NCBI GenBank assembly: GCA_016930515.1
Contig: JAFGGO010000082.1
Span: 1-32,764 of the forward strand
Origin: Promethearchaeota archaeon
GTDB lineage: Archaea; Asgardarchaeota; Lokiarchaeia; Sigyniarchaeales; SOKP01
Length of the DNA: 32,764 bases
Reading direction: 5' to 3'
Both the position numbers and the translations under genes were made by a program. The notes beneath the pieces are model-generated. The model worked only from the letters and a program-made list of their open reading frames with translations. It had not been told where the DNA came from and ran no database searches. This document shows positions 2 to 21,115 of this stretch, piece after piece. Each line of letters starts with the position of its first letter. Positions within the stretch are counted from its first letter, which is position 1.

Positions 2-532
2 ATAATAGGATTTGCTTTAACCACCGATTTAATAATAAATTACTTTGGTTTGGTTTTTCGTCTCATTGGGGACATCATTCATTTTGCATCGTTGTTTTTA
101 TTGTTCTTATTCTTTGAAACAACGCCATCATTTGCGGAATTTGAATGGAAGGATAAGGTGGAAAGTATTTATATAATGCATAGGTCTGGATTGCTCTTAT
201 ATCAAAAAAAAATAAATCGAAACGATCAGCAGGAATTCTACGAGGCATCACAATCGGGAGTATTAACCACGCTTAAGATGATGTTGGATAATATTAGCGA
301 TCAACAGGAGGCAACATTCATTGAAAAAAAGGGAAAATTTGTTCTCATCCAACCTGGAACCTACATTTATGGCGTTCTTATATGCAAGAAAAAATTAAAT
401 TCTTTGATTTCTATTTTGTTAGATATTATTCAAAAAATTGAAGGTATATATTCTGGAGTTCTTGATAATTGGGACGGAAATCTTGTTGTTTTCAAACCAT
501 TAAGCGAGATCGTAAAGGAATTTCTTTATTGA
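2..532 (+). CDS. 5'-truncated membrane protein with C-terminal longin/roadblock-like domain
   Basis: Frame is open from position 2 (IIGFALTTDL...). Hydrophobic helices precede IYIMHRSGLLLYQK and a beta-beta-alpha-beta-beta-beta-alpha pattern typical of longin-like domains; the fold call is inference. Confidence 0.6.
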   Translation: MIGFALTTDLIINYFGLVFRLIGDIIHFASLFLLFLFFETTPSFAEFEWKDKVESIYIMHRSGLLLYQKKINRNDQQEFYEASQSGVLTTLKMMLDNISDQQEATFIEKKGKFVLIQPGTYIYGVLICKKKLNSLISILLDIIQKIEGIYSGVLDNWDGNLVVFKPLSEIVKEFLY

Positions 533-907: not shown

Positions 908-1765
908 TCACATGTTAATATTTTTAAGTGCTTTTTCTAATAGAAAGGTAAATCCAGGATAATTATTCTTACGAATAAAATATTTCTTTGCTGAAATCCC
1001 CCATCGCTTATTATAGCGCATTGCATCTATAAAAAAAGCATGATCCACGATCTGGCTGCCTCCAACAACATCAACCCCTCTTAAAAACAGCGGATCAGGA
1101 AAAAAACCTCCAGTTGGCCCGATAATAGACACGAATTCCGCTCCAATGCAATTTTCCAAAATGGCATCTATAGTATCGTTCATGATAGTGGTGCTAGTGA
1201 TCAATATTTTTGTACATTTTAACAACCTTCTCGGATCTAAGGTCACTTCCCAACCGTCAGAACCCCTCAAGTGTTCTTTTTTTTTCTCGACAACGACCAG
1301 CCTTAGTCCCATTTGAACGATTTTTCGAACTAATGGCGGAAATAGACCCACCATCCCTACGACATCGTTGGGCCTTAAATCAGGCAATCCGAGGGAGTCT
1401 TCTGTAAAATCAAAGGAAAAGCAAGCTTTCCGAAAAACCCATTGAGAGATCGCATTTATTGCCCCCAAACCAAGAGCTCTTTCAACCAAATCGTCTGAAC
1501 TGAATCTCATTGCGATCTCGTAAGGTACTTTACCCTTGAGCTCGCTTAAATCCAGTTTTGATAAGATTTTTTTAACGCGTTTTTCTAAATTCAGGTACAT
1601 TAATCCGACCGATCCATCTTCTAAAACGATCGCACCAAAATTAGAAGTTTTATTTTCCTTTATGGAAGCATTAACGGCGGGAAAAAAAGCACTCGAAATC
1701 AAAGGAATTTCTACTTTTTCATTAACCTTTTTTGTCATGTAAATGAATTCCTTAGTGATTGTCAT
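908..1765 (-). CDS. DUF364/DUF4213 Rossmann-like protein (putative heavy-metal chelation family)
   Basis: Motifs RALGLGAINA, VGMVGLFPP, ITSTTIMNDTID, IGPT and LFLRGVDVVGG match DUF364. Confidence 0.8.
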   Translation of the reverse strand: MTITKEFIYMTKKVNEKVEIPLISSAFFPAVNASIKENKTSNFGAIVLEDGSVGLMYLNLEKRVKKILSKLDLSELKGKVPYEIAMRFSSDDLVERALGLGAINAISQWVFRKACFSFDFTEDSLGLPDLRPNDVVGMVGLFPPLVRKIVQMGLRLVVVEKKKEHLRGSDGWEVTLDPRRLLKCTKILITSTTIMNDTIDAILENCIGAEFVSIIGPTGGFFPDPLFLRGVDVVGGSQIVDHAFFIDAMRYNKRWGISAKKYFIRKNNYPGFTFLLEKALKNINM

Positions 1766-18907: not shown

Positions 18908-20521
18908 TTACTTGTTTTTATCTTTCACGATCATGTTCAATCCTTTCAGGACTGACAAGACGGAACTCATCACCACATCTTCGTGAGTGGCGCTTGTTTT
19001 AATGATCCTGTTTGAATCGAGGTCCATCAATTCGATCGAGACGTGGCCCAAAGCGTCAGTTCCGCCCGTGACCGCATCTATATTGTATTCTAATAGTTTT
19101 ATCTTGCTCATCGGCTCGAAACACTTGACGATTGCTTTTATCGATGCGTCCACGGGACCTACCCCCACGGAAGAAGCAACTCGTTCGATATAATCACCGT
19201 TTTTACGTATTTTAAGTTTCACGGTTGATGTCGGGATTATAGAGCCGGTCAAGGCCGTTAGTTCTTCGAGGATCACATATTTCTCTTCCTCTGGAAGTTC
19301 TCCTAAGACGTCCTTGACGATTGCAAGAAAATCCTCTTCCGAGACTTCGTGTCCCTTGTCTCCAAAACGCTTGACATGATCCATGATTTTTTCAAATTGC
19401 GAATCAGATGTTGGAATGCCCATCTCCTGTAATTTTGCCTTGAGTGCGTGTCCGCCCGTATGCTTGCCAAGCTTGATAGATGCCCTTACGATGTCTTCAA
19501 CTGCGTCAGAGCGCTTTATTCCGATCAATTCGGGCGTGATGGGCTCGAATGCTCGAGCGTGCTGAATCATTGCGTGAGCGTGTATTCCAGATTCGTGGGC
19601 GAAAGCATTTTGACCAATCAACGGTTGAAGTCTTCCGATTTTTACCTTACCCCCACAAAAACTTTCTATCAGTTTTGCTGTGGGAAATATTTTTCTGGTA
19701 TTCACATTCATCGGAATTTGATAAAGGGCGTAAAGAGACATTGCCGTTTCTTCAAATGAAGCGTTTCCAGCTCGTTCCCCCAATCCCATTATCGTTGTTT
19801 GTGCTTCTGACGCACCGTTTTCAAATCCAGCTAGAGTATTAGCTACAGCAAGACCAAAATCGTTGTGACAATGGACAGCAATTCGTACATTTTTTGGTAG
19901 CGCCTCGTAATTTTTCCGAATGATGTAACCAAATGCATTGGGAGTAATTGTTCCAACAGTATCAGGAATGTTCACGCGCGTGGCACCACATTCAACAGCA
20001 GTTAAATTCGCTTTAATTAAATAATCCAAATCGGTGCGAGTTGCATCCATGGCCGAAAATAAAACCGTGGAATAATGTTCCTTTGCATACGTAACTTCTC
20101 TAATGATACTGTCAATGACTTCTTGTCTAGTCATTTTCATTTGTTCTTTTAAATGCAAATCCGATGTTGATATAAAGACATGAATGCTATCCATGTCGGC
20201 TTCAATTACCTTATCGATATCAACCCTTTTCATTCGAGCAAGCCCCATTATTTCAGAACTTAAACCGATTTTTGCTATATCTTTACATGCAGCAAAATCA
20301 CCCTCTGATGTAATGGGAAATCCTGCTTCGATAATGTCAATTCCTAAATTACTTAGTGCTTCAGCAATTGAAATCTTTTCTTCGTGAGTAAAACTAATAC
20401 CAGGTGTTTGTTCTCCGTCTCTCAATGTTGTATCGAAGAAATACGCCTTCTCAGGAAGGTTTAACGATCCTCGAATCTTTTCCATCATGTCAGACACATA
20501 TATATCCTTTTTTTCCGTCAT
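18908..20521 (-). CDS. leuA: 2-isopropylmalate synthase with C-terminal regulatory domain
   Basis: DTTLRDGEQ.PG, HCHNDFGLAVAN, GLGERAGN, FAHESGIH, GPVDA and TGGTDA. The upstream Leu-rich leader favours LeuA over CimA/AksA. Confidence 0.9.
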   Translation of the reverse strand: MTEKKDIYVSDMMEKIRGSLNLPEKAYFFDTTLRDGEQTPGISFTHEEKISIAEALSNLGIDIIEAGFPITSEGDFAACKDIAKIGLSSEIMGLARMKRVDIDKVIEADMDSIHVFISTSDLHLKEQMKMTRQEVIDSIIREVTYAKEHYSTVLFSAMDATRTDLDYLIKANLTAVECGATRVNIPDTVGTITPNAFGYIIRKNYEALPKNVRIAVHCHNDFGLAVANTLAGFENGASEAQTTIMGLGERAGNASFEETAMSLYALYQIPMNVNTRKIFPTAKLIESFCGGKVKIGRLQPLIGQNAFAHESGIHAHAMIQHARAFEPITPELIGIKRSDAVEDIVRASIKLGKHTGGHALKAKLQEMGIPTSDSQFEKIMDHVKRFGDKGHEVSEEDFLAIVKDVLGELPEEEKYVILEELTALTGSIIPTSTVKLKIRKNGDYIERVASSVGVGPVDASIKAIVKCFEPMSKIKLLEYNIDAVTGGTDALGHVSIELMDLDSNRIIKTSATHEDVVMSSVLSVLKGLNMIVKDKNK

Positions 20522-20558
20522 TTTTCTTCTACCTATTTTAATTTAACGCTATTTAAAC

Positions 20559-20605
20559 GCCTCCCCTGTTCGCAAGGTATTACCGCTCGCAAAACGAGAA
20601 GAGGC
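20559..20605 (-). promoter_or_regulatory. GC-rich hairpin in the leuA leader
   Basis: GCCUCUUCU/AGGGGAGGC, GUU/AAC, UGCGA/UUGCG and GGU-AAU-ACC. The G-U pairs work on the minus (mRNA) strand. Confidence 0.75.
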
Positions 20606-20608
20606 TTC

Positions 20609-20716
20609 TCATAATAATAATAAAAGTTCAGGTAACATTAACAACGATTGAAGTGAAGAAAGTCCACTTGATGGTTTTTCAAGCGATCTAGAAATAAATT
20701 CTTGCGTGGCTTTCAT
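20609..20716 (-). CDS. Putative leucine-sensing leader peptide (35 aa)
   Basis: MKATQEFISRSLEKPSSGLSSLQSLLMLPELLLLL*; ends CTT TTA TTA TTA TTA TGA, 87 nt upstream of leuA. Confidence 0.75.
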   Translation of the reverse strand: MKATQEFISRSLEKPSSGLSSLQSLLMLPELLLLL

Positions 20717-20762
20717 TGCTATTTCAGTTAAAAAATGTTGCTAATTACATTCCTTAATACGT

Positions 20763-20783
20763 GCATAAATTAATAATTTATGC
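20763..20783. promoter_or_regulatory. Perfect 10-1-10 palindrome, candidate operator
   Basis: GCATAAATTA-A-TAATTTATGC. Confidence 0.4.
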
Positions 20784-20817
20784 TTTGAGAAAATAACTTG
20801 CGATAATAAAATAAATA

Positions 20818-20933
20818 TGGCGCACCCGGTGGGATTCGAACCCACGCGCAGTTTCCTGCACTGGATATCTGGTATTAAAGGCGATAACAATTCAATTCCA
20901 GTCCAGCGTCTTACCGGGCTAGGCTACAGGTGC
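20818..20933 (-). tRNA. tRNA-Ser(GGA) with 29-nt canonical 37/38 intron (20867-20895)
   Basis: GCACCTG/CGGGTGC acceptor, G discriminator plus encoded CCA, CTGGA-CT-GGA-A^A-TCCAG anticodon arm, long variable arm, BHB helix CTGG/CCAG. Confidence 0.93.
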
Positions 20934-21115
20934 TTTAAGACAGATCCAAAATTCAAATCCTATATTAGTAACCATCGCGCAAATCATTAAAACTTTTTGC
21001 TTGATATTCTTTTAAGGCGCTGGCGCACAATTAAATAAAAGGGAAATAAAAAATAAAAAAAATTGAGAAAAATAGGAGTGAATCGTTCCAAGATAACGCT
21101 CGTTCTCTTTAGAAA

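Follow-up and report, generated by a model that had tools for sequence, protein, structure and literature searches.

A conserved leucine-tailed leader ORF with an adjoining hairpin upstream of leuA in an order of Promethearchaeota: a candidate leucine-sensing leader in archaea

Results

The leuA locus and its leader

The window, i.e. the whole stretch of DNA analysed here, comprises 32,764 nucleotides of a Promethearchaeota archaeon (contig JAFGGO010000082.1). Its minus strand carries, one after another, a tRNA, a T-rich stretch, an A/T-rich promoter-like region, a short upstream ORF (uORF), a hairpin, a spacer with the motif TAGGT and the ATG of leuA (Table 1). The leuA gene was assigned by NF002085, and the nearest named LeuA records come from Promethearchaeota MAGs (75-78% identity). 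Since the neighbouring gene in the ORF list converges on leuA, the latter is apparently monocistronic here.

An earlier analysis of the letters alone (referred to here as the sequence-only reading) had described the uORF and its Leu counts, its ending CTT-(TTA)4-TGA, an internal ATG at 20638, the coordinates and distances of the hairpin and the UUU behind it. All of this was confirmed base for base. The hairpin is 47 nt long, with a folding energy of about -24 kcal/mol, a pyrimidine-rich 5' arm and a purine-rich 3' arm. Its 3' end lies 37 nt from the leuA ATG, and only UUU follows it. An Rfam search over positions 20400-21100 returned nothing except the tRNA at gathering score and nothing relevant up to E=10; neither RF00512 (Leu_leader) nor any other leader family matched at the leuA leader. 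A terminator scan did not call the hairpin.

Table 1 Features of the leuA leader region in the window
Feature	Positions	Strand	Remarks
BRE/TATA-like motif, putative promoter	20766..20782	-	consensus about RAAAA-N-TTTTTAAT; 50-66 nt upstream of the uORF ATG
TAATTAGCAACA-type motif	20736..20747	-	between the TATA-like box and the uORF start
Leader ORF (uORF), P0001	20609..20716	-	35 codons + TGA; 11 Leu, 8 of them in the last 11 codons
Terminal Leu run, proposed sensing codons	20612..20626	-	five codons (CTT + 4 x TTA) adjoining the stop
Conserved hairpin, proposed ribosome-gated antiterminator-like structure	20559..20605	-	begins 3 nt past the uORF stop
Spacer, A/U-rich, unstructured	20522..20558	-	includes the leuA SD-like AGGT (20534-20531)
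leuA, 2-isopropylmalate synthase	18908..20521	-	537 aa; NF002085 579 bits, cut-off 517

The tRNA (20821-20933, minus strand) lies directly upstream of the putative leader promoter and has an intron and a long variable arm. It was matched by Rfam with 43 bits; ARAGORN found no tRNA in the window. Inspection by eye gave the anticodon GGA (Ser), an intron of ~29 nt after position 37 and an encoded CCA.

Conservation of the leader ORF in front of leuA

A LeuA search in 40 relatives yielded 26 orthologous loci. At 20 of them, belonging to two families and at least 12 genera, leuA is preceded by an ORF of 31-39 codons with a terminal Leu run. The stop codon of this ORF, which can be TGA, TAA or TAG, lies 82-115 nt (mostly 87-99 nt) from the leuA start in these 20 loci. 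Furthermore, R1, a covariance model that comprises the Leu run and the hairpin, matched once in the genome of the window and in 33 of the 151 genomes of the class, with exactly one match per genome. All 30 R1 loci that we fetched (L157-L186) lie directly 5' of leuA, and 29 of them have the Leu-tailed uORF, the remaining one being cut by a contig end. Most genera without an R1 match also yielded no leuA ortholog. Altogether, 38 leuA loci have the Leu-tailed uORF in frame, and they represent two families within a single Promethearchaeota order. The sequence-only reading had started from the combination of tandem Leu codons and an RNA structure upstream of leuA; the Leu tail is conserved in these 38 loci, and the hairpin is treated below.

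At one locus (L018, G039:C95) two copies of the leuA start region flank a run of N, which suggests an assembly error; R1 still finds a leader-like match there, ~300 nt upstream (33.5 bits).

The Leu codons of the 20 leaders comprise 147 TTA, 57 CTT, 30 TTG, 9 CTC, 5 CTA and 3 CTG. Loss of the run in relatives, or (TTA)n kept out of frame, had been named in the sequence-only reading as the outcome that would reduce the run to an AT-rich microsatellite. The relatives, however, keep the run, always in frame, and because CTT, CTC, CTA, TTG and TTA replace each other synonymously in that frame, a simple TTA microsatellite is excluded. Among the 38 leaders, Leu accounts for 86% of the final six residues. 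Its share over the final 17 is 59%, and Ile, Val, Phe, Met and Ala together contribute 7% there; in the first 15 residues Leu is at the background level (11%; genome-wide, Leu 9.9% and Ile 9.5%). Being Leu-specific, the tail is unlike a generic hydrophobic peptide. The N-terminus of the uORF (M-K-x-x-Q) and a motif in its middle (S-L-G-L-L-L) are also conserved, and codon sensing alone does not account for these two elements.

By the criterion used, no Leu-run uORF was found at 76 leuA loci of other archaeal lineages or at 19 leuA loci of five other Asgard families, and none was seen before leuA in two GC-rich sister families of the same order. That it was not found in the other lineages searched does not mean that it is absent there. 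In another Asgard family (f21; loci L188, L190 and L191) leuA has a conserved ORF of ~30 codons at a distance of ~240 nt upstream; its codons 4-7 encode four Leu, which are not in a terminal position. This ORF may be a leader of a different build, or it may be unrelated.

A covarying hairpin next to the leader stop codon

Folding predicted, for each of the 20 leaders, a 40-66 nt hairpin (-12 to -29 kcal/mol) that starts between -3 and +5 nt relative to the end of the stop codon. It ends 33-43 nt before the leuA ATG at 19 of the 20 loci and 52 nt before it at the remaining one, where the leuA start was probably miscalled. The sequence of the hairpin base is conserved in both families (GCCUCUU / GGAGGC type). 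Family f2 keeps the hairpin with a different sequence, and R1 misses this family.

RNAalifold returned zero pairs on MAFFT alignments of the leaders and of the hairpins alone. These alignments were not structure-consistent, and RNAalifold was replaced by per-sequence folds, a hand-written structure and covariance-model alignment; only nested structures were modelled. The pairing energy of the hairpin arms was -21.4 kcal/mol for cognate and -11.4 kcal/mol for non-cognate arms (permutation p<0.0002). When the hand-written structure was applied to the MAFFT alignment, 76% of the cells paired, compared with ~50% after sliding the partner, and 12 of the 20 pairs had a compensatory change. In the model-fitted alignment of 33 sequences, 75% of the cells paired (50-56% when slid) and compensatory changes occurred in 18 of the 20 pairs, and 87 double-change cells were observed against 35 ± 5.5 after shuffling, a number that none of 500 shuffles reached. 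Although the model-fitted alignment is biased towards the model, the slid control is free of that bias. The sequence-only reading had proposed hairpin covariation as a check, and the 18 compensatory pairs meet it. Since the uORF is conserved in 38 loci and the hairpin has undergone compensatory changes, we conclude that the leuA leader is not a chance feature.

We also looked for mutually exclusive helices, and only one conserved hairpin is present in the leuA leader. No cognate advantage was detected for pairing of the uORF with the Shine-Dalgarno (SD) region or the 3' arm, of the 5' arm with the SD region, of the 3' arm or the Leu run with the spacer, or of the 5'UTR/N-terminus with either arm or the Leu run. 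Pairing of the uORF with the 5' arm gave p=0.017, which is not significant after nine tests, and its position was inconsistent. In these tests, neither arm showed a conserved partner outside the hairpin, and the uORF, the spacer and the SD region likewise showed none. The complementarity between UCUUCU in the 5' arm and AGAAGA just upstream of the leuA start, to which the sequence-only reading had drawn attention, did not hold up: both motifs are present, but their pairing is not conserved (-6.0 kcal/mol for cognate and -6.2 kcal/mol for non-cognate combinations).

Two candidate features of the hairpin were rejected. U-tracts inside or after it are present in only about half of the loci and are not a shared feature. 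A role of the GGAGG-like 3' arm as a decoy SD, with the 5' arm as an anti-SD mimic, was dismissed as a general explanation: in the cimA and Leu/Val leaders described below, the hairpin arms are unrelated and AU-rich or mixed.

Promoter and ribosome-binding sites

When the 20 upstream regions were aligned, most of them, in both families, had the BRE/TATA-like motif at an unchanged distance, and the only motif of this kind conserved across both families is the one upstream of the uORF. Its promoter function is inferred from the archaeal BRE/TATA consensus, and its position predicts a transcript start ~25-30 nt before the uORF. An AAGGAA-like SD precedes the uORF in most relatives. The TAATTAGCAACA-type motif recurs as TAATTARCAAYA in most loci of family f1, at the same position in L002-L014, and could represent either the initiator/start-site region or the site of a regulator acting besides the leader.

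The TAGGT before leuA is nearly invariant in f1 and provides an SD-like AGGT at -13. This agrees with the SD signal of the genome itself, in which 1522 long ORFs show AGGT, GAGG and GGTG in excess at positions -16 to -10 relative to their starts. Since this SD-like AGGT is kept at -13, the leuA mRNA must begin upstream of it, and an internal promoter within the 20-odd nucleotides between hairpin and SD appears unlikely. A leuA transcript start mapping downstream of the uORF would have refuted the sequence-only reading; the promoter motif and the SD speak against such a start, as far as sequence can tell. In two metatranscriptome runs of the same study, nothing matched to the stretch, and DNA contigs yielded no more than fragments.

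Leaders for other amino acids in the same genome

We scanned the whole genome blindly for short ORFs located upstream of long ORFs and having their last eight codons rich in one amino acid. The leuA leader was the top match by hairpin energy. The sequence-only reading had suggested a search for cognate-codon uORFs in this genome, and such leaders were indeed found before cimA (Ile) and trpD (Trp). The Ile-run leader (G000:C47, L115 about 301-369, plus strand) consists of 22 codons with seven Ile among the last eight. It lies 107 nt before a gene for a LeuA paralogue (L115:477-2075) that is most likely the citramalate synthase (cimA) of the Ile pathway. An Ile-run leader precedes cimA in 14 of the 22 loci examined, and its stop is followed by a hairpin with an AU-rich conserved stem. 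The Trp leader (G000:C24, L116 about 1333-1389, minus strand) has 18 codons and ends in W-x-W-x-W-x-W, with four Trp in the last eight codons. It is situated 143 nt before an ORF of 352 aa with a TrpD-like N-terminus (L116:134-1189, minus strand), and similar Trp leaders were seen before trpD in nine of the 18 loci examined.

Leu/Val-rich leaders precede three further operons, encoding a methylmalonyl/isobutyryl-CoA mutase (L031, G000:C61), an acyl-CoA dehydrogenase (L032, G000:C122) and a 2-oxoacid:ferredoxin oxidoreductase of the pyruvate/ketoisovalerate family (L033, G000:C126); two of the three leaders have the motif S-T-I-T-V in common. The enzymes of these operons could serve the breakdown of branched-chain amino acids. 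Alternatively, they could work in the reverse direction and make keto-acids from acyl-CoAs, and the sign of regulation would then be as for leuA.

In the cimA and Leu/Val leaders, the cognate run adjoins the stop, and a hairpin within 10 nt, an A-rich spacer of ~35-60 nt and an SD follow. The sequences of these hairpins are unrelated to that of the leuA hairpin. From this common layout with unrelated hairpin sequences we conclude that the principle is structural and general and does not reflect a sequence-specific protein site, and that it does not depend on the resemblance of the leuA 3' arm to an SD. The layout of the Trp leader differs, with the stop located in the loop of the first hairpin, which is formed by the last Trp codons. 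Judging by the genes downstream, the amino acid of the sister leaders matches the pathway.

Ribosome position and the state of the hairpin

A 28-nt footprint of the ribosome was modelled on the 20 leaders. With the A site at the first Leu codon of the terminal run, the hairpin base was paired with a probability of 0.82; this value dropped to 0.21 when the A site had moved to the last Leu, and to 0.04 once the stop was reached. The model thus has two states, a folded hairpin with a ribosome parked upstream (starved) and a base held open by a terminating ribosome (replete). Because a biosynthetic gene must be ON during starvation, we assigned the folded hairpin to ON. The sequence-only reading had inferred the same sign, and the modelled values fit it.

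In the mechanism that we propose, the leuA mRNA would start at the conserved promoter upstream of the uORF, and a ribosome translating the uORF would meet 11 Leu codons, five of them directly before the stop. If Leu-tRNA were scarce, it would stall at or before the start of the terminal run, upstream of the hairpin, and the hairpin would fold. RNA polymerase and/or the mRNA could then proceed to the A/U-rich spacer and the ribosome-binding site of leuA, and only ~35 nt of bare RNA would remain before a new ribosome loads at the leuA SD. If Leu-tRNA were plentiful, the ribosome would reach the stop, and its footprint would hold open the GC-rich base of the hairpin and free the 3' arm and the spacer. 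This open state would be OFF, most likely through premature, hairpin-independent termination or cleavage, that is, FttA/aCPSF1-type polarity acting on the exposed RNA.

Transcription-translation coupling and FttA polarity have been studied in Euryarchaeota and not in Asgard archaea. The gene for FttA/aCPSF1 is present in the genome of the window (G000:C67; TIGR03675 879 bits, cut-off 580), which is permissive evidence only, as the factor is universal in archaea. Archaeal termination operates without hairpins, using U-tracts and the FttA/aCPSF1 nuclease, and the latter was proposed to act on ribosome-free RNA (PMC8716108, PMC11616081).

We consider it likely that the leader is a cis-acting leucine gauge read by the ribosome, with the folded hairpin as ON and the open one as OFF, the latter most likely by premature termination or cleavage. 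The sensing logic is well supported by the comparison of leaders, and a response to charged tRNA-Leu is inferred from it. It is likewise inferred, without expression, start-site, 3'-end or ribosome data, that the uORF is translated and that ribosomes stall on it, and so are the assignment of ON and OFF and the nature of the output. Several points count against the proposed mechanism, among them the two conserved uORF elements that codon sensing does not account for. The OFF mechanism also has no sequence signature, as the U-tract is variable and there is no alternative pairing for the freed 3' arm. In addition, the hairpin could refold once the ribosome leaves, and a kinetic co-transcriptional window has to be assumed.

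Alternative explanations

For the output step, which is inferred, factor-dependent termination is favoured, and control of mRNA stability or translation is the main alternative. In the latter case, the same sensor would act post-transcriptionally: stalled ribosomes and the hairpin would block 5'-to-3' decay, as in ermC-type systems, or initiation at leuA would be altered. We regard this as possible but rather unlikely. It would not require transcription-translation coupling, and the leuA SD lies in the open A/U-rich spacer directly after the hairpin, where its modelled accessibility rises slightly upon stalling at the start of the Leu run (unpaired probability 0.62, compared with 0.48 in the free leader and 0.54 with the ribosome at the stop). 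However, this SD effect is small and inconsistent between loci, and the SD region has no conserved pairing with the uORF or with either arm. Pure stability control also leaves unexplained why the hairpin adjoins the stop in the leuA leader and in all folded sister leaders except that for Trp.

Alternatively, a regulatory protein might bind the conserved structure, in line with what has been suggested for the Actinobacterial LEU element, and the Leu codons would then not be what is sensed. For that element, mutation of the Leu codons was reported to have no effect on regulation (PMC1262725), and therefore a Leu uORF in itself is no proof of sensing. The precedent, the conserved base sequence of the leuA hairpin in both families and the further conserved motif at the predicted start-site region are compatible with a protein site. 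Against it, the hairpins of the Ile, Trp and Leu/Val leaders are unrelated in sequence, the cognate-codon logic and the layout are common to all leaders but that for Trp, and the Leu codons are specifically selected, with synonymous turnover. We consider this explanation improbable.

There is very little in favour of a classical attenuator of the bacterial type, in which the hairpin and the following U residues would form an intrinsic terminator and thus the OFF state. In the window the GC-rich hairpin has UUU behind it, and some relatives have U4-U5 at this place, which is suggestive of such a terminator, but the U-tract varies inconsistently between 0 and 5 U, with the run absent or limited to at most three U in about half of the loci. 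The sequence-only reading had already doubted a classical intrinsic terminator on account of the UUU, and this doubt fits the inconsistent U-tract. Moreover, the sign would be wrong, since in the footprint modelling the hairpin forms upon stalling, i.e. under starvation; the terminator scan did not call it, and no antiterminator partner was found. Archaeal intrinsic termination relies on oligo-U and not on hairpins (PMC8716108).

Finally, a small hydrophobic membrane peptide with a function of its own, or separate transcripts for uORF and leuA arising from an internal promoter after the hairpin, can hardly be upheld: in spite of the hydrophobic tail, the conserved N-terminus and mid motif and a TTTAAATA-like sequence after the hairpin in the window and some relatives, the tail consists almost entirely of Leu even though the proteome contains Ile as frequently as Leu, the Trp leader lacks a hydrophobic character, the amino acid fits the pathway in every case, the TATA-like box of the internal promoter is not conserved, and its mRNA would start downstream of the conserved SD.

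Discussion

The leuA leader is a real and strongly conserved feature. Its anatomy, conservation and covariation are observed, as is the agreement of the sister leaders' amino acids with the pathways downstream. The best reading is that of a leader peptide which senses leucine and whose hairpin is gated by the ribosome; it would belong to a group of leaders, matched to different amino acids, within this Promethearchaeota order.

In bacteria, attenuation by leader peptides is textbook knowledge; it requires that ribosomes follow closely behind the polymerase as they translate the RNA. The sequence-only reading had held that such leaders are not well established in archaea; in agreement with this, no published archaeal leader-peptide attenuator was found in our full-text literature search, and the words attenuation and leader peptide are absent from a 2021 review of archaeal transcription-translation coupling. 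A conserved set of amino-acid-matched leaders would show that amino acids are sensed through ribosome position in the archaeal domain as well, and that this sensing was re-created in a form that dispenses with the terminator hairpin, in keeping with a Pol II-like polymerase. Such a set would also make coupling and FttA-type polarity testable with defined cis elements. In annotation, the succession of a cognate-codon run, a stop, a hairpin, an A/U-rich spacer of ~35-50 nt and an SD is a simple signature with which regulated operons could be sought in uncultured archaea.

A wider generalization can be offered only tentatively. The leaders before leuA (Leu), cimA (Ile), the trp operon (Trp) and the Leu/Val operons might form an order-wide family of ribosome-mediated attenuators of an 'antiterminator-only' design. 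In this design, a hairpin right after the leader stop would protect the nascent RNA, and a ribosome at the stop would unzip it and expose the RNA to FttA/aCPSF1-type termination. If this were true, the family would be a new mechanistic class of attenuation and direct evidence that transcription-translation coupling serves gene control in the closest prokaryotic relatives of eukaryotes.

Comparison with known systems

In translational attenuation of ermC and cat, as proposed here, a stall in the leader ORF remodels a downstream hairpin. There, however, the hairpin hides the SD and the start codon, whereas in the leuA leaders 33-43 nt separate the end of the hairpin from the start codon, and no modelled state leaves the SD closed.

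The Actinobacterial LEU element (Seliverstov et al. 2005, PMC1262725) likewise combines a Leu uORF with a compact conserved structure and has no obvious terminator. The sequences are unrelated, and the base stem of the LEU element, formed by the Leu codons and the leuA SD, is unsupported here: cognate and non-cognate combinations both gave -8.66 kcal/mol (permutation p=0.50; mean z against shuffles +0.16).

The E. coli tna operon (TnaC) resembles the proposed mechanism in that the position of the ribosome at or near the leader stop decides on the access of a factor to the RNA downstream, without an intrinsic terminator. It differs in the signal, since TnaC responds to free Trp, by way of the nascent peptide at the stop codon, and not to hungry codons, and in the factor, which is Rho; here it would be FttA/aCPSF1, the involvement of which is only inferred.

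A further comparison is that with the enterobacterial leuL, trpL, hisL and pheL leaders. These differ from the leuA leader in having a terminator hairpin with a U-run, and in that a set of alternative helices could not be demonstrated for the latter; their host is not an archaeon with a Pol II-like RNA polymerase and termination without hairpins; in the leuA leader, the Leu codons also reach right to the stop. The leuA leader shows neither an Rfam match nor an intrinsic terminator, and a second helix alternating with its hairpin could not be demonstrated, so that it does not satisfy the criteria for leuL/trpL leaders. It would nevertheless work like them: a short leader ORF with tandem cognate codons lies upstream of the first pathway gene, and a hairpin a few nucleotides past the leader stop is, according to our modelling, formed when the ribosome stalls and blocked when it stands at the stop. 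Compared with the trp attenuator, this hairpin occupies the position of the 2:3 antiterminator, with no terminator hairpin after it.
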